From Basidioascus undulatus (lineage: Eukaryota): DNA of 35,082 nt. The stretch is taken from contig JTLS01000069.1 of NCBI GenBank assembly GCA_000826855.1, forward strand, positions 1 to 35,082, written 5' to 3'. This document shows positions 4,775 through 17,500 of the stretch, in pieces. Each line of letters begins with the position of its first letter. Position 1 is the stretch's first letter. Under the pieces are notes generated by a model. That model did no database searches and was not told where the DNA came from. It saw only the letters and a list, made by a program, of their open reading frames with translations. The translations under genes were made by a program, and so were the position numbers.

Positions 4775-6741
4775 CTAGGCAACTTTCCATCCCTCGACCT
4801 CCTTTGCTCCGGCTGGGCTGGAGTCTACGCTCAGCGGGTGCTCGCCGAACTGGCTCAGGTCCCCCATCCGCTTTCCACTCTCCGCCAGCTCCCGCGCATA
4901 GTCGAGCACGTGCAACTCCCAGCCCTCAGAAAGGTTGTCGAGGTCAAAATCAGGCTGACGCTGTTGGAGATAGTCGTGTAGAAGGAGCGCGTGGAGGGCG
5001 GCTTGGTTTGTGCTGGAAGAAAGAGGGTTGAGCTGTGGAGCTCTCGACAAAGAAGCTGAGGTGGACTTGGATAGGGTGGACCGTACCTGCGGGCAGTGTG
5101 AGGTCGTGCCCCGCACACTGCGTCGCCGACGAGCAAGGCCTTTCCGGAATCGAACATAGCTTGCGGTGATCGGACGTCGGTGACCACCTAAACAACATAA
5201 TTTACGCTCAGCTTGTCGGTTTCAGTCTTGAAGGAAGTCAAAAAATACAACTCACCTGCAAGAATGGATCCCTCGTCTTCCTCACTACTTCCTTAAGGAC
5301 GTCGGGGAGTACTCTCTCGGCGCGCTGTCGGATGTCCGTGTCGACGACCTCCGGCTTGAGGAGACCCAGTGGGACTGAGACAGTTCGTTTGGTCCCCTGA
5401 ATAAAGGCGTACGCCAAGACTTATCAGCAAAGCTACCAGAGTTAGTGAGCCACAGGTGGAATGTGATCTCACATGCTTGTCGGTCATCACCCTGTCCAGC
5501 TCGGGCGAGCCCTCGGCGTAGTTGTTGTACCAGACCCAGTTCAAATTTCGCTTTCCAGATTCGATAGCCCCATTCTGAGAGGGAATGTTTAGTCAGCTCA
5601 ACGAGCCGTAGGGAAGGGTCAAGTGCTACTCGTCAATGCGCACCGGTCCGGGAATTAGCTGTTGCAGATGGTGCGTAAAGTTGTCAACACACTAAAATCC
5701 AAACACAAAGCTCGAATGACTGAATACTTACGTAGCAAAGGAATTGGGTATGTGCCGCATGGAAGAAGGTAAACTTCTCCGACAGCGTCTCCGCTGCACA
5801 AGGCGACAGTTCGCGCTCGGGGACAAGCCCGCGGAAAGCAAGGTAGCCGACGTTCGTGCTGTGTCATCATGATATGCACGTAAGGATAGATACCGTCGAG
5901 TGAAGTAGCCGATACTGACCGCTTAGCCTCCGGCACTAACTTCTTGCGGATGCTAGACGACGCGCCGTCGGCAGCGATGAGCAGGTCTGCCTCGAAGGTC
6001 TCGGGTTTATCGGAAGATGAAGAGGGAGTATAGGTCACAGAGACCTTCCCCGTGGAAGGCGAGAAAGAAAAGTCGGTTCTGCAGATAGTTGTATACGCTC
6101 AGCAGCGATCAAGACGGTCTGTGGAGGTCAGCAACGGACACATTCGCTCCCAAGCGATAGGCAGCCGTGGGCGATGGCCGAGGACGGGGGCCTAAACCAT
6201 ACGCGAATCCCTAAAAGAGGACAGTTTGTTTTCAGCTTTACGTCCGAGTGCTCGAAAGAGGTCTCACCTCCTTCTCCTTTCCATCAAAGTTTGCCCGCAA
6301 GATCCAGTAGAGCTGGCTGCCCAACCGTTTCAGCAAGTCTGCGTCGCAATGGGAGACTATTATATTACGACGTCAGAGACGAACCTTGGCCCAGCTTGTC
6401 ATCTCCTGCACCCACGCTTTCTCCGCCTTGATCACCTCCGACTCCCTTCCGAGGTACTGACGCCCCCCGTTCGCGGGCACCGCGAGGTCTGTCTTCGTCG
6501 CATCAAAGCGCTGGAAGAAAGCGCGCATGTTTTCGCCCAAGACGATTCCCGCGCCTTGGTCGGAAAGCGACGAGGAACGCTCAAAGATCGTCACGGAATG
6601 GCCGAGAGAGGAGAGGGCGACGCCCTGAAGGAGCCCGCCGAGCGATCCGCCTGCGTACACCCTGGGTTGAGAAGTTGACGATGAGGAATCGAGCGGCAGG
6701 GACTCACCGACGATGGCTAGAGTTCTCGGCTGGGTCGACAT
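4775..6741 (-). CDS. FAD-dependent aromatic-ring monooxygenase, 2,6-dihydroxypyridine 3-hydroxylase-like family
   Basis: Spliced protein has the Rossmann motif LAIVGGSLGGL (intron 6651-6707), FERS...QGAGIV, LYWILRANFDG, the DG motif ADLLIAADGASSSIR, GYLAFRGLVPE, LIPGP(15-nt exon 5644-5658)NG...NWVWY, and the GD motif LLVGDAVCGARPHTARSTNQAA. All junctions checked keep the frame. Stop at 4775-4777. Confidence 0.9.
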
Positions 6742-7548
6742 TCTGGTAGTTCTTTTTGTGATGGCTGGGAGTCAAGAGGCATGATGAGGCATTTAGTCTA
6801 CACCACCGAGCGCTCGCTCATGAGGTGGAGGATTAAGGAGCAGTCTACTGACGTCACCTGCGGTTTCTTTGGACTGCGAACTTGGCAACGCAACAACCAA
6901 ATATCGACGTTCTGAAAGAAGACTGTACGCCGAAGATAGTCTGTACTTTATTCCCGTGTTGGTCATGAGTTCTGAGTCGGTAGGACTACCGGTTGCCGCT
7001 ATGGACCGGGACTTGTTTGCACATACAGACCGCACTCACTTGGGTGTATGGTCCGAACGCGAGGATTACTTCTATAACATCCAAAAGAATCTTCAGATCT
7101 TGAGTATATGATATAGCACACTTACAATGGCCAGATAGTCACCCCGTACCAGACGATGGAGCGACAGGACACCGCGACGCCGAGCTGAATGTGATTCTAC
7201 AGCTGGCACATCTCCTCAAATGTATGCTGTTGAGCCGACCTAGGACGTGCATTATATATGAAAGGCGTGGCATGCCTATTTCATTCGGCACAGTCGATTC
7301 TTTCAGCCACATCTTCACAGCGCAGTCGGCACTGTGTGTTCTCCAACGAAACATCACTGTCCCCTCACGAACCAAAGCTCTTCCTTGATTTGAACACATG
7401 AAAGCCTCAATTTAGCGCAAAAATATCATGCAAGAGTGCATGGAAGACCGCTACGCATTGTCTGCCCACCGCAGCCCTTCGACGGATGCGGCTTCACCAC
7501 TGTGACCGCCGCCACGGTTCGTTCAGAATGTTGTGTTGGAGGGGTTCG

Positions 7549-8527
7549 TTAACAGATGCGCGCCTCCTTGTGTTTCGGCCAGTCCTGCTTCTGATGCTCA
7601 CCTCCACAGTACTATGCGCCCCTGCAGCGGCAGACATTTTTGCGTCGCAGGCCGCAAACCTCGCAGAAGAATATAGCCGCCTTCGCAGCAAGCTCGGCAG
7701 AGAAACAGATACAGTCGAGCACCACCTCGCTGAGCGGCATTCCAGCGGCTTGCACAGCGACCCTTTCTAGATGCGCGCGCGAATTGTTGCGCAGAGCTTC
7801 GCGGAAGAGGAGTCTCGAGGCAGCGTCAAGCGGCGGTGGGGGGAATGGTGGCCCAGGGCGTACTGGAGGCGTACATGAGTCATTCTCTGCTGATGGATGA
7901 GAATCTTCACCTGCAGAGGAAGGTTGAAGATTCTCCCGGGCTGGCGCAAGCGAGTTTCGAGGGTCGTGTATAGCCCGAGCTTCTCGAGCTCAACGTGTGG
8001 GCTGGGGAACGGTAAAATCTTTGCCCGGACGTCAAGCCACATCACATCCAGGGGAGATCGTGAATCGTGTCGGCCATCGCTCCGCGTACGAGGTGACCCT
8101 CGAAAGCGATTGGGAAGCTTGCGAGGTCAGCGATAGTCAAGCAGATCATGCGGAGCTTAGGGTGATGCGGATCGTAAAAGGTCGGATCGGACGTCGGCCG
8201 GAAGACGGTGATTTCCAAGAGGACGTCCTGCTGTTCTACAGAAGGGTGTACGCGAGAGGGACCGTCCAGCAGCTCCGCAGTCACGAATGGGCCGTTGGTG
8301 TGGTTGACCCGGATCAGAGCGAGGCGGTCGCTAGCGGACGAAGCGACGACGAGGACAAGCTCGCCTGGCCCTCGACGCACGGGCCCACATAGAGCTACGC
8401 CGGGTCTGCTATCCCCATATGAGACGGCCAGATTGAGATAAAGTTGCTGATCGGGAGCTCGAAAAGGTCGAGGGTGCCGAGCGGCCAACTCGAGGTTGTG
8501 CGAGGCGGTACGAACGTCGAGCGTCAT
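7549..8527 (-). pseudogene. Disrupted gene for a C-terminal MYND-type zinc-finger protein
   Basis: ATG at 8527 (gccATG after a pyrimidine-rich leader). The frame breaks at ~8050 (HDLP-LDVMWLD needs one more C) and again at ~7950. The final frame reads FFCEVCGLRRKNVCRCRGA*YCGGEHQKQDWPKHKEARIC*, matching the zf-MYND pattern CxxC..C.xC..YC..HQ..DW..HK..C, with an in-frame TAG at 7612-7614 and TAA at 7549-7551. Confidence 0.75.
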
Positions 8528-8894
8528 GGCAGCAGAGGATTTGAAGAAGTGTGCTCAAGCGGTAGTAGAGGAGCGAGCGAAAAGTGTAGATGGGAGAAGG
8601 TGGACGTCGAGGGCAAGCAGGCCATGCGTGGCCGATTCAGGTTAAGATGTCCCGGGTCCGCGTCCTGCAAAGCACCTGCGGTTCTTTTTCCTTGATGAAC
8701 GCAATTCCTCGCGACCATTCAGTAGAGAGTTGATCAAGAAACCGCGAAAACGGTATGTCATTCATTTTCTCAGGAAGGAAACCGTCCCCTCCCGGGTCTC
8801 CCTTGACCCCTCACCAAGCCCCTGGTTCTCTCCCCGCCGTCATCTCGTCGGCGTTCAAGAACCAAATGCTGCCCTGTATCGCCGCAGGCCGTCC

Positions 8895-10160
8895 ATGGCG
8901 GTGCTTCTTCCGGAGCTTCTTGTGCAGTCTTTGCTTTCGCGAGGCCTACGGCCACCCAGACTATGATGCAGAGCGTACCGCAGTTGCGCACACAAAGCTT
9001 TCCCTCCTGCTGGTCTGCAAACAATGGAAGTGCGTCGTTAGCAGTTCCAGGCCTGCGCACTCCGAGTGCTGATACGCGAGTGAGTCCCCTTTGGGGACGC
9101 TCACCACGCCCTGCCTTTACCGCGAGATCGAGCTCTGCTCGGCCTCTCAGCTCGAAGCGCTACTTGCTCATCACCTTTCTCTTGCGCGTGTCTGAGGCCA
9201 TGACCTCGCTTCATACATCCGCACACTCGAAACGGCCCCGCTTGCCTTGCACCGTCAAAGTGGAAGCGACGGGGCCTCATCGAACCTCTCGACGCTCATT
9301 GGGCTGTGTACCAGGGTCGAACAGCTCGAGCTCAATCGCGAGCCGTGCTACCGCTGCTCTTCAATTGTCCGTCTGTCAAGTCTTGCAGTAAACGCTCATT
9401 CGACCCTCACCACGCTCGTCGATATCGAAATCTCGCTCCCGCCCGAGCCGCTCTTGGAACTTCTCTCTCGCTTCCCGCACCTCGAAAGCGTCAGCTTGGC
9501 CATCAAGTGGCTGGCCGCCGCACCGGGGCATTCAGACGCCAAGGCCTTTCCCCTCGCTCTCCCTCGCATCAGGACCTGGAGCTCGACGTCCAAGGCGATG
9601 CCGGCCCGTTGCGCCGCACCCTTGCCCGCGCCGATCTGCGCACGCTGTGGTACCTGGATCTCGCATACGAAGAGGCTACCTGGAGCCCGACCGTCCGCGA
9701 TGTTCTCACGTCCGTCGGCAAATCGATCCTCTTCCTCAATCGTATCGGCGCGTCGATCGATGCGGACGACTTCTTCCCTCACCTCGCGCACGCCTGTCCT
9801 CGTCTTTCGCAGCTCAGCATCCCCTGGATCTACCAGCATGCCCCGAGCGTACTGGAGCTGAGCCACCCGCGTCTCAAAACACTTCGCTTTGCTGGGCTCT
9901 CGTTCGGGCAGGACGCCGAGGAGGCTGATCGGATTCTTTCGTCGCTCGCGCGGTCGCGGGAGAGACTGCCTGCGCTCGACACGGTCGCACTGTCGCAGTA
10001 TGACTTCGAAGAGGAACGGCACACGCTGGGGGCAGACGAGCAACGTCGGCTGCTGGTGAAGGCGGTGGTGCTGCAGAAGGCGGCATCACTCTTCAGGATC
10101 ACGAACGTGTACGCCTGCAGGACGCTGTTTCATGATACATATCTCAGGATGCCGCCGTGA
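8895..10160 (+). pseudogene. Disrupted F-box / RNI-like LRR protein gene
   Basis: ATG 8895 gives MAVLLPELLVQ (F-box start), a frameshift at ~8925-8940, then TKLSLLLVCKQWK. An intron donor GTGCGT at 9030 has no AG at the expected position (TTGGG). It continues TPCLYREIEL...RV*GHDLASYIRTL (in-frame TGA 9193-9195), LRR-like LLSRFPHLESVSL, a frameshift at ~9575 (LPRIRT-LELDV), then CPRLSQLSI, HPRLKTLRF, LPALDTVAL to the stop at 10160. Confidence 0.8.
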
Positions 10161-10445
10161 ATTTGAACGCTTCTTGAAAGCTGTGATTAACGTGTGCGCC
10201 GTGGTAGAGGTATGACTGGGAAGTTCATTGCATCTGCAGGGATGTAATGCCCTCGGAGATGGTTGCGCAGCGCTCTCGAGACGTCCACGCTTTCCAGGAC
10301 CGTGATTGTCAAGTTTCGCGCGATGCACAGCCATTCCGCCAGCGACCGAGGTAGACGGCACAAACTTGCCGGCCACATTGCAGCAAGTCCTCGACGATTG
10401 AAGCCCGCACCAACGGCACGCTGAGGGCACTCAACACACACATAC

Positions 10446-11190
10446 TTTCAAAGTGAAGTGAGGGACATATGAATTGAATGCTGAAGAGGCACGGAGGGTA
10501 GCAATGTTGTATGGGCAACCACGCAGCAAGGGGAGCGCCGGCAGATCTGTGCAACGAACACATCCAAGCATCGGCGTCAGCGACTCTGATCTCTCCACAC
10601 ATCACGTGCACTATGTGGGAAATGGCGGATGAAGACAAGTGGGCACAGGTGAAAGGACTCGGATGAGAAAAGGTGTAGCATAATCGGCAGCGCCCTCGCG
10701 CTGACTCGTTAGAGGGCGCGGAAGAGCCTGAGAGTGGTGCATGCAAGGTGTCGTCGTTGTCCACGCGCCGCGTTCTCTCCCAGAGACAGCTCAGAACGGA
10801 ATCTCACCTAGTCGGAAGACGCTGAGATGCAAGTGAGGCGAAGGGCGAGGACCTGAGCGCGAAGGGATGGAGGATGTCAGTCCCCTGCATTTGCGGACGA
10901 AGGTGCATGGCGGCGAGAGTGTTCAGAGAGCAAAAGTAAATAAGTTGTCCGTCATTAGACGTCGGAGAGATTCCCACTTTGCTATAGTTGGTCTCATCAT
11001 GCGAAGGGGTGCGGGGCCATAGACGTGGATGGGAGAATGTGACTCACGGCCAGTGGTTGGAGGCGCGATGGCAAGGGATTGAGAAGTCAGTAAATGGTCA
11101 GTAGGGCTGGTATGCGTAAAGCTACGAGCCGTGTAGAGAGATTGCAGAGAAGGGAGAAGGGAGGGAGAAGAAGAGATGGTGAGAAGACGA
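10446..11190 (-). ncRNA. Putative spliced non-coding snoRNA host transcript, divergent from BLM10 (ends approximate)
   Basis: Pyrimidine-rich start region ~11140-11190. Intron 1 is 11047-10853 (GTGAGT...ACTGAC...CTCAG), exon 2 is 10852-10808 (45 nt), intron 2 is 10807-10547 (GTGAGA...GCTGAC...ACAG), with a possible third donor GTATGT at 10445. Exons 1-2 have no ATG; exon 3 has only a 6-codon ORF. Confidence 0.6.
10921..11003 (-). ncRNA. Box C/D snoRNA, U79/SNORD79-like, predicted guide for 2'-O-methylation of LSU rRNA
   Basis: On the minus strand: box C ATGATGA (10994-11000), guide AGTGGGAATCTC-T followed by D' box CCGA (10962-10965), C'-like TAATGAC (10951-10957), box D CTGA (10923-10926). 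Plus strand 10967-10978 reads GAGATTCCCACT, identical to the conserved LSU rRNA segment AACGAGAUUCCCACUGUCCC. It lies inside a GT-AG intron (10853-11047). Confidence 0.85.
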
Positions 11191-11532
11191 GCAGCACTTT
11201 CGCAGCTTACGGTTACCCGCGAGGAGCCTTGTAACGAATAATACTGCCCAATAGAACTGATGCTATGCGCTGGCCAAACAAGCTTTCATGTGTCGCACGA
11301 GACGTCATCTTGTCGCTCTGAAAGGCAGTTGCCGTCGAAGCCGACGCGTCGTTCGTCTTCCCAACCGCCATTCACTCGACGGCCCGCTGTGCTTTCCACG
11401 CGCTTACGTATACACACGCGAGGCCTTTACAGAGCAGATCTACAGAACATACGCAAGCCCTGACACATTTCCAACTTAAAGCGAGAAGAAGAGCAAGACC
11501 GGGCCTTGATCCGGATCTAACCATCTACCATC

Positions 11533-14500
11533 ATGTCCGCCTCTGATCCCCTGCTCACACGACCGCCCTCGCCCGCGATGCTGACTCGCGTGATGGGTGC
11601 CACACTCGGAATGGGCGACACAAGGTCTGACGCTGAGGACGACTGGTCCGACGAGTCCACCGACGACGAGCTCGACGACGAGTTTGTCGCCGCGTGCGAG
11701 AACGGGCAGGGCGCGAGGGGAAGGGCGTTGACGTATCCGCAAGTGCGTTCGTTTGCCTCCCGAGATAGAGAACGATACAGGCTTGGGGAATGCTGAAAAT
11801 GGGGTGGAAACGGCGAGCAGAGCCTCCCGTATGGCGCGGAGAGTCTGGAGGAAATGGACGACAGGCTGGACTTTATCATCCGCCGGCTGGTCGACTGCGT
11901 CCGAACGAAGGACTGGGACGTCGGCTGTGGGTTCTCCGTTTCCCTCTTTATTCCCAAACTCCCTCCGGCCCGGCGGTACAGCGCTTTTGCTAACCCCGCG
12001 CGGCGAGGCACACAGTCGTGCAGTGGAACCACCGCCTGCAGTGCTGGCTGTCGCTCAAGTACCCCATGTCCAAAGACCGTCGCGTGCGGCTCGTGAAGCT
12101 CTACTACGAGCTGACGAGTACGCGCTCTCTCCTACTCCCCTCCCTTATCCTTGTCTCATCGCTGACACCTTCCCTGCACGTCGGCCAGTCACGCCCGGGA
12201 TGGACGGCCGCTTCGTCAACATGTTCGCCAACCAGCTGATGACGCTCATCGCGTCCAAGAAGCGCATCTCGATCAAGGACGTCGTCCTTCCCTGGCGCCC
12301 GCTGTACGACATCCTTGAGAAGGAGCTCTTCCCCAAGCAGCGCGAGACGGCGAGGAAGTGCGTCGGTGGCCCTTGTCCCTGTTCCGCTTGTTTTCCTCCT
12401 AGTGCAGGTTCCGAAGGCTCACCTGTGCGCACGGGATGATCGCAGGAACATTGCGACGACCCTCCTTAGTCTGACCGAGTACTGCCAGCGCTTCTTCCAC
12501 CCCGCCGAGGCACCCGCGATGCTCCAGGTGATCCTGCCGAGGATGGACGGGTCCTCGATCGACGTCCGTCTTCTCCCCATCTTCCCTGAAACTGCACCGC
12601 CCTTTTTCCCCGCCCACTCACTCTTCTCTTTATCCCTCATATCCGCAGTCATTCATCGCGACCCAGTCCTTCCTCGTCCACTTCCTCCCACTCTCGCACC
12701 CACAGTCCTGGCTTCCGATGAGTACGTCCTCAGTCTGCCCCCCTTTCCTTTGCCTTCTTTCCTCTCGTCCTGTACCTCCTACACACCGCTTATCCACCGC
12801 CCTTGTACCCAGCTTTCAAGATGTGGGACGCCTTCAACTCGGCGCACTACGACGACCAGCAGATCGACCTCCTGGGCCGCTTGGCCGAGCGGCACCTCGA
12901 CCCCTCGCTCTCGGACCCGAAGTCCATAGCCTCCCTCCCCCCGCCGCCCACGTCCTCCGCTCTCCCCTCTTCCACCCCCGCCTCCAGCACGCCGCAGATC
13001 ACCGTCGGCGACGGGAGTGGGGGAGCGGGCGAGTGGCGCGGACTCAAGAAGGACGTGGGCATCATGAGCAAGGAAGAGTTCGACATGGTCATGCAGAAGG
13101 CGCTCGCCAGCTTTGGGATTTCTGTGGGACACCACCGGGTACGTTGTTGGAGGCAGGCCGAGAAAAAGCGCTGGCGCTGATTCTGGCGATGGATGGACAG
13201 GGTGGAATCAAGGTCGGCGCGGACGCGGGGGTGAGCCAGACGATCATGAACCTGAAGAAGCCGTGCAACCGGACGTGTATGTCATTCCCCACGTCCCCTC
13301 ACTGCTGCACAAGCGCTGACGCCCCCCCTCCCCAATGCACAGTCTCCCTCGCCCAAATCCTCGTCTACAGCATGATGCCCGACGCGCTCGCCGCGCCGAC
13401 CTCCGCGGCGCCCTCCGGGTACGCGACGCCCCAACCGGGCGCCACGCCGATGCCGTTCTCCCCCGCGGGCGGGACGTCCACGCCCATGTCCCGCACGGGC
13501 AGCGGCGCCGGGTACTTCCTCCAGCCGCACAGCGGCGGCGCGGCACACGTCAAGCAGCAGCACCTCTTCCCCGGCGCGGGCATCGGCGGCGCGGGCCCGC
13601 AGGCGACGTTCGTCGGCGGAAGCAGAGCGCTCGACGCGCTCTGCAAGCTTGTCCTGAGCTGCGAGACGTACTTCCACCCGAGCAACTGGGGGCAGCACAC
13701 GATGCTGGTGCGTTGGCGGAGCGACGAGCTAGACAGGGAAGGGCAAGGGCTGATCTATATGTGGGGCGATGCGGGCAGCTCACGTACTTCCTTTCGGACG
13801 TGTCGAGCTTGTTCCTCGAGCGGTGGAAGGACGAGGAGAAGGAGGACTGCAAGACTCCGAAGGTGCGTCTGTCGCCCGCCCCTGCCGGGTGTTCCCCGCC
13901 TCTGAGATCGAATGGCTGATGAGAGGGTGCGCTGAACCGAACAGGAATGGCGTCTGACGAAGACAATCAAACGCGAGTTCGTCCTCGCGCTCCGGACCGT
14001 CTCGCTCCTCGCGATGTTCTCGAAGGACGCCGTCTCGATCGCCGCTACGCAAGGGTGCCTGAAGAACATGGCCATGCTGTGAGTCTCCCCCGCTCCCCTT
14101 CTCATCGGAACTTGGCTGATGCAAGCTGTGGGCGGTGAATCAACAGCGAGCCGAGCCTCATCGTCCCCGCGATCCTCGAGCGCGCGTACCCCTCGCTCGA
14201 GACGCTCACGGAGACGCACCGCACGACGGCGTGCATCACCGCGCTCAGCACGCTCGCGCCTGCGCTCGTGTCGCGGTGGAACTACTACCCCGGCGCGAAG
14301 CACTTGCTCCCGCTGCTGGAGCTCTGCTTGCCCGGCATCGACCTCAACGACCCGACGAAGACGCTGTCGACCGGTGCGTTCCCGATTCCATTTCTGTCCT
14401 GCTTCCTTTGGGAAAGGGTGCTGAGACGCCCACCCAAACCAGCCATGTTCGTCATCACTGCGCTGCAGAACGTGCGGATCGGAGACACGACGGTCGAGCC

Positions 14501-17500
14501 GCAGGCGGACGGCGTCGTCCCCAAGACGCGCAACCCGATCATGGACATCGACGGCGTCGCGCCGGCCGACCTCATCGAGGTGCAGGACATTGAGCTCGAC
14601 CTGCCTGAGGGGCGCGAGGGCGGGGACCCCCCGCTCAGCAGGGAGGAGGAGGACAAGCTGCTGAGGTCTGCGACGGCTGGGTTCGGGGACTGGGGTGAGT
14701 CCGTTTGGGGAGGGTGGGGATGGGAAGATGATGGCTGATTGGGCGCACGGGACGGCCGCGGGCAGTCGTCGAGTTCTTCAGGAGAGTCCTGGCGCTGTTT
14801 GAGAACTTGCCGGAGGAGGGCGGAAAGGGAAACAAGATCGGAGGCAAGACGGAGGAGAGCGGTGCGTTTGCTATTTGCAGTTTGGATTACGGGCACGAGG
14901 CACTGAACATGCTCGGACAAAATAGTCATCCGCACGCTCATCGCCGCGTGCGAAGTCATCTGCGCGCAGCTTTCGCCTCAGATCTTCGACCTCGCGCTCA
15001 AGCAAGTATACGAGTACGCGACAACCACAACGCGCGCCAACGGCGTCCGCGTCATCGGCCAGCTGGTCAGCTGCTTTGCCCGCGCGGACGCGAAGAAGAC
15101 GCTCGGCCGCTTTTGGGGGTTTGCGAGCGAGGGCGTCAAGGTCGAGCTTAAGCACGGAGCGAGCAGCATCAGGACGAGTGGGTGGTTGGCGAGATGACGA
15201 GTTGAAAGGAAGCCAGACACTGATGTGCTTGTGGCCTGGGCGGGTAGCTTCGACGAGCACGCCGTTCGGGAGCGACATGGCCTTGCACTGGAGTGAGTTG
15301 TTACTTGCAAATTGGGTTGGTAAAACGTGATACTGAATGGAGGGCTCGTCGGCCTTGGCAGACCTCGCGATCCTCACCGGCGCCATGTCGAACGCCGGCC
15401 CCGAGCTCTTGCGCTACAAGGCGGAGCTGATCGACCTGCTTAAGCTGGCGGTGGAGCGGTGCAAGTCAGAGAGGGGTTACTCGTGGGCGGCCAATGTAAG
15501 CCGTTCTTTTCGACAGCAATTTGGTAGAGAAAATGGAAGCTCACAACGATACGCCCGACTACAGCTCGTCCAACGCACGCTCCAAACCCTCACCGCCATC
15601 TACGCCGTGCACCCGCGGTTCGTTAACTCGGATGAATGGGAGTCCCCGCAGTTCGCGCGCGACCACATCTACCACTGGGGCAAGCTCTACGACGTCAAGG
15701 ACGTCAAGGTCGACTGGCACGTGCCGAGCAGCGACGAGATGGACCTCGCGCTCCAGATCGTGCGCGAGGTGCTCGTTCCTGTGCTTGAGAAGGTCGAGGG
15801 CCTTGTCGGGGTCGGCGAGGACGGCGCGCCGTCGGGCATGGCCGTGGATAGGGACGAGGCGTGGACGAACGACTTCTGCCGGTGCGTGTTCGCGGCAAAG
15901 AGTGCGAGCAGCGAGACGCAGGTGCTGATGCGGGAGCAATGGGATCCGTCCGCAGATACCTCCAAACGCTGCGGCTCGCGTTTGGCGGCATCGCGACCCT
16001 CATTCAGCTGGGCCCGAAAGAGGGCGGGGCCAAGGTCAGCGACGCCGGGTAAGTCTTGCTGTCGTGCCTCCGTCTCCATCCTCAATCCTGACGATCGTCC
16101 CTTTCCTGGCGCCAGCGACGAGGTACCCGAGTTCATCACCCTCCAACCGCCGTTCAAGTGCGGCTGGCCGCTCGAGGGGGAGCAGGACGACCGCCGCGAC
16201 TTCATCTACGCGTTCCGCGACCGCTTCGGCCGTGTTCTGCACAACGCAGCGGAGGAGCTCAAGCGCGTGGGAGCGGACACGGTCGAGAGGGGCGACTCGA
16301 TTGACGTCGTTAAGGCGCTGGTACGTTTTTTCAGACAATTGGTCGTGAGATTGCGGACAGGAACGAAGTGCTGATGCACGGCCAATGCGGCTTTGGTCGT
16401 GGTAGCTCCGCGCCATTCGCGCGCACATGCTCGAGACAGGCCTGGACAACGCGCACTACGAGAGCACGCGGAAAGCGTACGCTTTCGCGCGCAGCATGTC
16501 CAAGATCGCTCCCAAGCAGCGACTCTGGCCACGCATTGCGTGGGTGCGCAGGGCCGCATTCTACCGTACGTTGGTTGCGCATGTCCGTTGCGGGATGAGA
16601 ATCAAGAAACGAAAGTTGATGTATTTGGTGTCACCGGATTGCAGACGCGACGAGGCTGCACTTGAACACGTTCTACAAGAAGCGGAACGCGCTCGACGAC
16701 ACGCTGCTGCTGGACGTACTGGAGCTGAGCTTGTCGCCTTAGTACGTTCGTTTTGCTCTCGGACGCTGCAACGACAGGATCGGACTGACCCGATTTTCCT
16801 TCGTAACAGCACTGCCGGTGAGTTGTGGCGACTATGCGCGTGCGGTTGGTGTACGTCGACTGACCCTTGTACTTGCACTCTGCAGTCCGGAAGTAAGTCA
16901 AGCAATTGGGCGCGGGGCCTGCGTATGATTGCTGACGCACCTTGAAAACTGCAGGACTGCACAGAACACGCTCCACTCCCTCACCAGGTTCGTGTGTGTA
17001 TGACATGCTGAAGCTCGGGACCGCGTCGCTGATGCTGGATGCTGTGCATCAGCTTTTACGACGGCGCCAAGTCGTTGTCGCTGCCGAAGATCTTCGGAGC
17101 TCTTCAGCGTGCGTTCTGCAGGATGCGAATCTCGCGACAGTGTACTGAAAGTCTTGTACTATTGGAATGCAGCTGGCACCGACGTCGACCGCATGAAGGG
17201 CGCGCTCTACATCGTCGGCGACAAGACGTGGAGTGTGTCGTCGTCGCTTCGTTCCTATTTGTTCCAGCGAGCTGACGCCCGCCCGTAGTCAACTTCTGCA
17301 TCCTTGATTTCCGCTTCTTCCGCTCGCTCGTGCTCGGCTTGCTGGGCGCGCAGCAACAGGAGAAGGTACAATGGGCTCTGCCCAAAGCTTCGTCCGGACG
17401 ACGACGCTGACGCTTATTTCCTCGCTGCCAGCCTTCGATCCAAGCTCTAATCCAGAACACCGCACAAGATGGTGAGCATCCCCAGATTCCCGAAACACTC

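Follow-up and report, generated by a model that had tools for sequence, protein, structure and literature searches.

Two predicted intronic box C/D snoRNAs in a putative non-coding host of Basidioascus undulatus, a pair probably separated from GID8

Contig JTLS01000069.1 of Basidioascus undulatus was analyzed over 35,082 nucleotides, the whole of which we call the window. We consider it quite probable that the window carries two intronic box C/D guides in a non-coding host, and that this pair was separated from the gene of a short LisH-CTLH protein, which we take to be GID8. One of the two RNAs had been flagged in a preliminary description; that call is correct but ordinary, as it adds one more U79 ortholog to a known family. 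The second snoRNA and the history of the host gene, both missed at that point, are the more interesting parts: the partner RNA would give a published orphan snoRNA its target and range, and the pair appears to have moved out of GID8.

Our model suggests that a short minus-strand non-coding transcript, divergent from the BLM10/PSME4 gene, is spliced, and that each of its two introns would release one box C/D snoRNA by debranching and trimming, as known from intronic snoRNA biology. Both RNAs would assemble into snoRNPs. The D' guide of snoRNA 1 would pair with LSU rRNA and direct Nop1 to 2'-O-methylate A2333, while that of snoRNA 2 would target 18S G1272 (yeast Gm1271), a U32A/snoR21b-type site. 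The common ancestor of ascomycetes and basidiomycetes would have carried both snoRNAs in consecutive GID8 introns. In the Basidioascus lineage, GID8 would have kept both intron positions and lost the snoRNAs, which would still lie in the original order, within a host that has no coding capacity. The predicted features are as follows.

10400..11200, minus strand: putative non-coding host transcript with approximate ends, running divergently from the plus-strand BLM10/PSME4 gene
10853..11047, minus strand: predicted host intron 1, 195 nt, GTGAGT, branch ACTGAC at 10881-10876, CAG (splice signals)
10923..11000, minus strand: snoRNA 1 from box C to box D, assigned as U79/SNORD79/Nc CD14 ortholog (boxes and homolog-built model)
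10994..11000, minus strand: snoRNA 1 box C ATGATGA (read from the sequence)
10967..10978, minus strand: snoRNA 1 D' guide AGTGGGAATCTC, 12/12 Watson-Crick to the genome's own LSU rRNA 2330-2341
10962..10965, minus strand: snoRNA 1 box D' CCGA
10957-10951, minus strand: snoRNA 1 TAATGAC, the C' register of the preliminary description
10949..10955, minus strand: snoRNA 1 box C' ATGACGG, preferred register (homolog alignment and model)
10927..10946, minus strand: snoRNA 1 D-side region without a credible target (target scan; not conserved among homologs)
10923..10926, minus strand: snoRNA 1 box D CTGA
10808..10852, minus strand: predicted host exon 2, 45 nt, without an ATG or any detectable trace of GID8
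10547..10807, minus strand: predicted host intron 2, 261 nt, GTGAGA, branch GCTGAC at 10581-10576, CAG (splice signals)
10655..10762, minus strand: snoRNA 2, 108 nt, assigned as Nc CD55 ortholog (guide, position, homologs)
ends of 10655..10762, minus strand: snoRNA 2 terminal stem GGAC/GTCC
10757-10751, minus strand: snoRNA 2 box C ACGACGA
10734..10743, minus strand: snoRNA 2 D' guide CATGCACCAC, 10/10 to the genome's own 18S 1269-1278, target G1272
10732-10729, minus strand: snoRNA 2 box D' CTCA, after one T
10662-10659, minus strand: snoRNA 2 box D CCGA

snoRNA 1 is assigned to the U79 family

The minus-strand C box ATGATGA, D' box CCGA and D box CTGA of the preliminary description all lie where it had put them, within about 80 nt at 10923-11000, and the GT-AG intron that it saw around them is supported by GTGAGT at 11047, the branch ACTGAC at 10881 and a CAG ending at 10853. 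The arrangement is that of a box C/D RNA, with RUGAUGA and CUGA close to the 5' and 3' ends, respectively, and an antisense element within the 10-21 nt range beside D/D' that is Watson-Crick paired at position 5. Targets were scored against the Basidioascus genome's own rDNA, taken from the same assembly. The proposed 12-nt LSU guide, separated from box D' by one T on the minus strand, pairs with this rRNA over its full length. The D'+5 rule leads to LSU A2333 in the genome's own numbering, which equals human Am3830 and, as previously counted, yeast A2326. The pairing is computed and the modification follows from the rule; thus, we infer that A2333 would be 2'-O-methylated via snoRNA 1.

The human modification table pairs Am3830 with SNORD79 and places it 11 nt before Cm3841, and the Neurospora methylated sites 2288 and 2299 given in the accessible text of PMC2780460 are also 11 nt apart. 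This common offset from the following methylated C identifies the site as yeast A2326, and the yeast rRNA and the genome's own share the spacing seen in human and Neurospora. The yeast 25S table passes from Gm2288 to Cm2337 with no Am2326 between them, in line with the earlier statement that S. cerevisiae leaves this adenosine unmodified. In the literature searched, including fungal modification maps, we found no fungal measurement of methylation at the equivalent of Am2326.

Table 1 of PMC2780460 lists N. crassa CD14 as a cloned, intronic snoRNA with a D' guide to 26S-Am2288, and gives U79 in plants and humans as its homologs and none in S. cerevisiae or S. pombe. The published CD14 sequence has a 10-nt guide core identical to that of snoRNA 1. 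The U79-like identity first proposed is thereby borne out, as are the human SNORD79/Am3830 site and the missing S. cerevisiae counterpart; the implied novelty of a fungal U79 was overstated, since the family was cloned in 2009 as CD14.

A pattern scan of metagenomes gave at least 120 homolog loci, with 102 unique cores among the matches listed, and a prokaryote scan gave 23 chance matches, which were used as control. Several features that the pattern had left free recurred in the cores among the matches listed: T before D' (85/102, vs 3/23 prokaryote chance matches), a purine before box C (90/102 vs 8/23) and C' TGnnGA (79/102 vs 5/23). A CYGA D' box is less telling (96/102 among the matches listed vs 16/23); it reads CTGA in 74 and CCGA in 22 of these 102 unique cores. 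From the at least 120 loci, 35 entered alignment A1 (U79) and 26 entered alignment A2 (CD55-like). In A1 the C' T-G-x-x-G is invariant in 35/35 homologs and the D side is unconserved. The C'-like TAATGAC of the preliminary description is present in the sequence, but its register is weaker: ATGACGG (10955-10949) is the better choice for box C', because the invariant T-G-x-x-G falls there and the model aligns there. The resulting C'/D' pair, CCGA and ATGACGG, is in register with the invariant columns and one position off the homolog consensus.

The homolog-built model R1 matched the window with 28.5 bits (E=3.4e-8; next match 3.6 bits), a score that is partly circular because the homologs were chosen with a pattern derived from the window. 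The Rfam search suggested in the preliminary description yielded 0 matches at gathering score over the whole window, and between 9500 and 12500 at E<=10 it returned four weak matches in all, with SNORD79 not among them; snoRNA 1 does not reach the RF00152 gathering score of 47 bits. The Rfam SNORD79 model scored 30-33 bits, also below gathering, on 4/17 homolog loci. By guide and target, snoRNA 1 is thus assigned as a U79/CD14 ortholog and not as an Rfam family member. A pattern search for U79 paralogs in the assembly gave four matches, of which the other three score at most 6.3 bits; diverged paralogs beyond the pattern matches are possible.

The stretch before box D, in which no target had been recognised at first, also gave none that was credible when scanned against the genome's own 18S, 5.8S, LSU, U1, U2, U4, U5 and U6. 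The best D-side candidate reached -14.3 kcal/mol, compared with -23.3 for pairing of the D' guide. Among anchored runs, the best, 10 bp including 2 G-U with one G-U at position 5, was rejected.

Some further observations concern this RNA and its relatives. Complementary stretches at 11008-10998 and 10890-10882 (minus strand) flank snoRNA 1, which has no terminal stem, and could form an external intronic stem; the predicted intron fold did not form it. Just behind snoRNA 1, GCCATGCACC at 10912-10903 (minus strand) is a second 10-nt match to the 18S region targeted by snoRNA 2; it has no boxes around it and may be chance or a duplication scar. Among the matches listed, 10/120 U79 loci (L014, L034, L045, L050, L074, L091, L092, L106, L122 and L125) have an 11-nt D guide to 18S near 166-176. 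U79 would thus be a double guide in one basidiomycete-like group, and the window copy lacks the 18S 166-176 guide. In L025, L044, L063 and similar loci, U79 lies in another multi-intron cluster with further snoRNA-like elements, one of which, in one locus of this type, combines ATGATTA as box C and ATGA as box D with a different guide.

A CD55-like partner lies one intron downstream of U79 in GID8

In the homolog loci, the host protein of U79 and its partner carries LisH and CTLH domains. Among the matches listed, a CD55-like element lies 310-471 nt behind U79 in 33/120 loci, and in 0/23 prokaryote controls. When the 71 listed loci with at least 450 nt downstream are taken, the partner is present in 31/31 with a LisH exon next to U79 and in 1/40 without it, namely L081; these counts are not independent events, as many metagenome loci are near-identical. 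Within GID8 the partner sits one intron downstream of U79, in ascomycete-like as well as basidiomycete-like loci.

Published CD55 and the GID8-intron partner are identical in C box (AUGAUUA), guide, D' box (CAUA) and D box (AUGA). Judged by these shared elements, the partner RNA is a member of the Neurospora CD55 family. CD55 (EU780979) was cloned and seen by northern, maps to chromosome IV like CD14, and is called an orphan in the accessible text of PMC2780460; that of PMC5824354 (Canzler 2018) gives CD_55 only in Neurospora. In the latter survey, sequences whose C or D box was non-canonical had been filtered out, which would explain why CD55 homologs were missed. The literature searched, as far as its text was accessible, gives neither a target for CD55 nor a homolog outside Neurospora. 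No paper linking these snoRNAs to GID8 was found in a search made mostly outside subscription journals, and the Canzler 2018 supplement may list CD_14 members and hosts.

The terminal boxes of the 26 aligned copies are RKGAUUM/AUGA in 24 and canonical in 2, the close relatives L073 and L078. The corresponding C/D pair is U-A in 24/26 and G-C in 2/26, a two-sided change of one pair. Across these related sequences, six tested pairs were 79.5% paired, a value that none of the 500 shuffles or of the slid controls reached. The family guide CAUGCACCAC, followed by one base and a C-x-x-A D' box, is invariant in 26/26 aligned homologs, partly by selection, and is present in the window copy. The nearest Rfam model to the family is plant snoZ221/R21b (RF00300), with L078 at 37.8 bits vs a cut-off of 44.

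On the D side, CD55-like RNAs of L012, L036, L045, L050, L066 and L081 have a second guide, of 13-16 bp, to LSU A1496 (own numbering), which makes 6/21 distinct D sides among the matches listed; L043 and L069 have a 12-bp guide to LSU U2729 instead. The family would be a double guide with a target switch in some lineages, and the window copy has neither LSU guide.

How the pair may have left GID8

The assembly contains a single GID8 candidate, on contig C269 (locus L153). Its introns at 1168-1227 and 1427-1500, of 60 and 74 nt, lie at the same codon positions as those of L019 and gave no match to the snoRNA models R1 or R2; they are empty. The best named match of this GID8 is a protein of Phenoliferia psychrophenolica (Microbotryomycetes), at 46%. 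We built a midpoint-rooted GID8 tree of 27 rows (23 of the 47 GID8-bearing loci, the Basidioascus GID8 and 3 named proteins). The Basidioascus GID8 groups with the P. psychrophenolica protein and three snoRNA-bearing basidiomycete loci (support 100/99), on a long branch, and other snoRNA-bearing loci group with named ascomycete proteins; deep support is weak. By parsimony, the pair-in-GID8 state would be ancestral to Dikarya and the Basidioascus genome derived.

Duplication of a gene segment followed by reciprocal loss is, on balance, the most likely route. GID8 gave no tblastn match on the minus strand of the window, and no significant GID8 remnant was detectable in the predicted host exons, where 33-145 of 200 shuffles score as high. 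This lack of a remnant favors a different route, in which the two introns moved as units, by excision-insertion or retroposition, into an unrelated transcript divergent from the BLM10 promoter. The same holds for the tblastx comparison of window 6001-17000 with the flanks of the at least 120 homolog loci, which found neither similarity nor synteny, and an excision-insertion model has been proposed for fungal snoRNA introns in the accessible text of PMC5033589. The mobility of snoRNAs in general is established in the literature as far as it was accessible. Nevertheless, we regard such a transfer as rather unlikely: two introns would need to arrive in their ancestral order, and a same-order pair outside GID8 also occurs in L081, for which a single step, the loss of coding exons from a duplicate, accounts. 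Excision from GID8 itself does not fit, because GID8 kept both intron positions.

In L081 (2420-2900) the U79 and CD55-like pair occupies two introns of a short host without GID8. By reading, this locus is AT-rich with yeast-like branch sites and splice signals; it may be an independent relocation, and would place U79 in a yeast-like genome.

snoRNA 2 is probably functional

snoRNA 2 sits in the intron directly after the U79 intron, as in the CD55 family, and has a long internal hairpin as in CD55. Its target, 18S G1272, equals yeast Gm1271 and human Gm1328; an anchored scan of the guide returned only this site (10 bp) and a 7-bp LSU run. A dual guide of the snR40/CD43 type, serving 18S G562 and G1271 from one D' guide, was not found in snoRNA 2. 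Scanned against the genome's own rRNAs and U snRNAs, its D side gave at best -15.3 kcal/mol, with no anchored run above 9 bp, and was rejected. An H/ACA reading of intron 2 was dropped once the C/D guide and the homologs were found. By position and guide, snoRNA 2 is assigned as a CD55 ortholog with variant boxes, since ACGACGA/CCGA is neither canonical nor the family consensus RKGAUUM/AUGA.

We expect that snoRNA 2 is functional. With its degenerate boxes, the window copy could instead be a relic, which is unlikely; in its full form, this alternative holds that snoRNA 1 works, that snoRNA 2 is decaying, and that Gm1271 comes from an snR40-type RNA or has been lost, which we find quite doubtful. 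What speaks for decay is that both terminal boxes are degenerate, that the match to model R2 is confined to the guide and D' (model positions 26-48 of 106, E=0.0012), and that the D side is without a target. Moreover, according to the accessible literature, Gm1271 and Gm562 are both served by snR40 alone in yeast, and cells lacking it show no growth phenotype. This literature also assigns the first U of box C to the Snu13 binding site, but the family tolerates G at this position in 5/26 homologs of alignment A2. The guide, spacer and D' box are identical to those of distant homologs over 18 nt (L050, for example), whereas the exons have diverged beyond recognition and share nothing detectable with those of L050.

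The K-turn geometry is likewise intact, with a 4-bp stem I, a 3-nt bulge, two GA steps and a stem II pair that is G-C. It arose in 5/20000 shuffles (18 with G-U allowed) in a test designed post hoc, and its strict form is passed by only 15/31 snoRNA 2 homologs. No better copy of snoRNA 2 was present among six pattern matches in the assembly, and of five matches to an snR40/CD43-type pattern, the three examined lacked a C box. Folding stability was not informative (z of -0.36, 0.09, -0.67 and 1.23), and Rfam RF00533 reached 21.7 bits on the window, below gathering.

The predicted host transcript appears to be non-coding

The splice signals listed above suggest that both host introns are spliced. 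In intron 1, 47 nt separate the 5' splice site from the C box and 70 nt separate the D box from the 3' splice site; the former distance lies within the 41-60 nt that the accessible text reports for Neurospora. In the 365 nt of exons of the predicted spliced product, ATG ORFs reach only 6 and 21 aa; these short, unconserved predicted exons without an ORF fit a non-coding snoRNA host of the UHG/GAS5 kind. Divergent from it on the plus strand lies the multi-exon BLM10/PSME4 proteasome activator gene (first ATG near 11533; Pfam HEAT_PSME4_mid).

It is improbable that the host is the 5' part of a protein gene, or that the assembly is mixed and the GID8 of C269 stems from a second fungus. Minus-strand stop-to-stop frames of 114 and 164 aa exist and the transcript ends are approximate, which would leave room for a coding host, but neither frame has a Pfam match and the convergent plus-strand frame ends at 10160. 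With 2992 contigs the assembly is fragmented, and it includes bacterial rRNA, so a second GID8 may have been missed or a second fungus may be present. Against a mixture, there is one eukaryotic LSU among 3 scored matches in a strict first look, the U1 and U6 copies are near-identical, and there is one GID8 candidate; the window is without GID8 exons in any case. The Basidioascus GID8 and the window likely come from one organism, and we continue to favor a non-coding host.

Bacterial-type LSU rRNA was seen on C952 (L003, 2881 bits) and C2989 (L004, 1491 bits); C952 also carries 16S and two tRNAs and is bacterial DNA, and C2989 may be organellar. The plus-strand frame at 9204-10160, convergent on the other side of the host, has no Pfam match. 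Upstream of intron 1, 11210-11086 (minus strand) contains GTAAGC, which resembles a 5' splice site, and two copies of ACTGAC that resemble branch sites (11102 and 11091), with no YAG between these and 11047; nested splicing or an upstream intron is possible.

That snoRNA 1 is a chance arrangement of motifs is hardly credible: antisense 12-nt matches to rRNA alone are indeed common (22 in the window vs a mean of 19.8 in approximately dinucleotide-preserving shuffles) and Rfam gave no match, but the full pattern of C box, 12-nt guide, D' and D occurs once in the window and in 0/100 shuffles (3/100 with a 10-nt guide), the guide is shared with cloned CD14, and a conserved partner lies in the next intron.

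Discussion

CD55 gains a proposed target and a wide distribution, after its orphan label (Liu 2009) and its Neurospora-only range (Canzler 2018) in the accessible texts. Its terminal C/D motifs, with G-C, U-A and a C-for-U variant, form a natural series that would test the tolerance of Snu13/Nop58. A snoRNA pair that left a protein gene together, with the gene keeping its empty introns, is in addition a candidate for a non-coding host born from a coding gene.

Taking these lines together, we lean towards a joint reading. Most filamentous ascomycetes and many basidiomycetes would carry an unrecognised dedicated 18S Gm1271 guide, CD55, in which the terminal G-C pair contacted by Nop58 is swapped for U-A. 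With U79, it would have occupied consecutive GID8 introns since the Dikarya ancestor. A non-coding host carrying both would have been born from GID8 at least twice, in Basidioascus and in the yeast-like L081, and Basidioascus snoRNA 2 would work with a third box variant, ACGACGA/CCGA. If this is true, budding-yeast snR40 took over Gm1271 after a CD55-type guide was lost.

The closest known counterpart of snoRNA 1 is CD14 (EU780938; Liu et al. 2009, PMC2780460). According to the accessible text, both are intronic C/D RNAs with the same guide core and one spacer base, directed at the same LSU site (Am2288 in Neurospora numbering), in a family without a budding- or fission-yeast homolog. They differ in the D' box (CCGA in snoRNA 1, CUGA in CD14), in the length of the pairing (12 vs 10 nt) and in their unrelated D sides; the predicted host of snoRNA 1 is without coding exons, and the accessible part of the paper does not name the host gene of CD14. 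Human SNORD79/U79 (RF00152; Am3830) shares the guide core, target and D' position, whereas snoRNA 1 stays below the RF00152 model even at E<=10, and fungal homologs score 30-33 bits vs 47.

snoRNA 2 resembles CD55 in its identical 10-nt guide, spacer, C-x-x-A D' box, long D'-C' hairpin and intronic position, and differs in its boxes and length (ACGACGA/CCGA and 108 nt vs AUGAUUA/AUGA and 137 nt). Plant snoZ221/snoR21b (RF00300), Drosophila Me18S-Gm1358 (RF00533), human U32A and yeast snR40 also guide the 18S Gm1271-equivalent, and CD55-like RNAs all score below gathering on RF00300 and RF00533. According to the accessible literature, Gm562 and Gm1271 share a single compromise guide in yeast snR40. 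Members of the CD55 family, in contrast, carry a perfect guide dedicated to the 18S Gm1271-equivalent, and their terminal boxes are mostly non-canonical.

For the relocation, the nearest precedent is snR191, which left NOG2 in Candida parapsilosis/orthopsilosis. In the accessible text of PMC5033589, the intron left in the protein gene is too short to hold the snoRNA, as are those of the Basidioascus GID8. Literature on snoRNA hosts losing coding capacity was also searched, and nothing relevant was found. snR191 is a single H/ACA RNA that became intronless and is expressed from its own transcript (PMC5033589, accessible text). In contrast, two C/D RNAs would have moved together in Basidioascus, with their order kept, and both are predicted to be still intronic.
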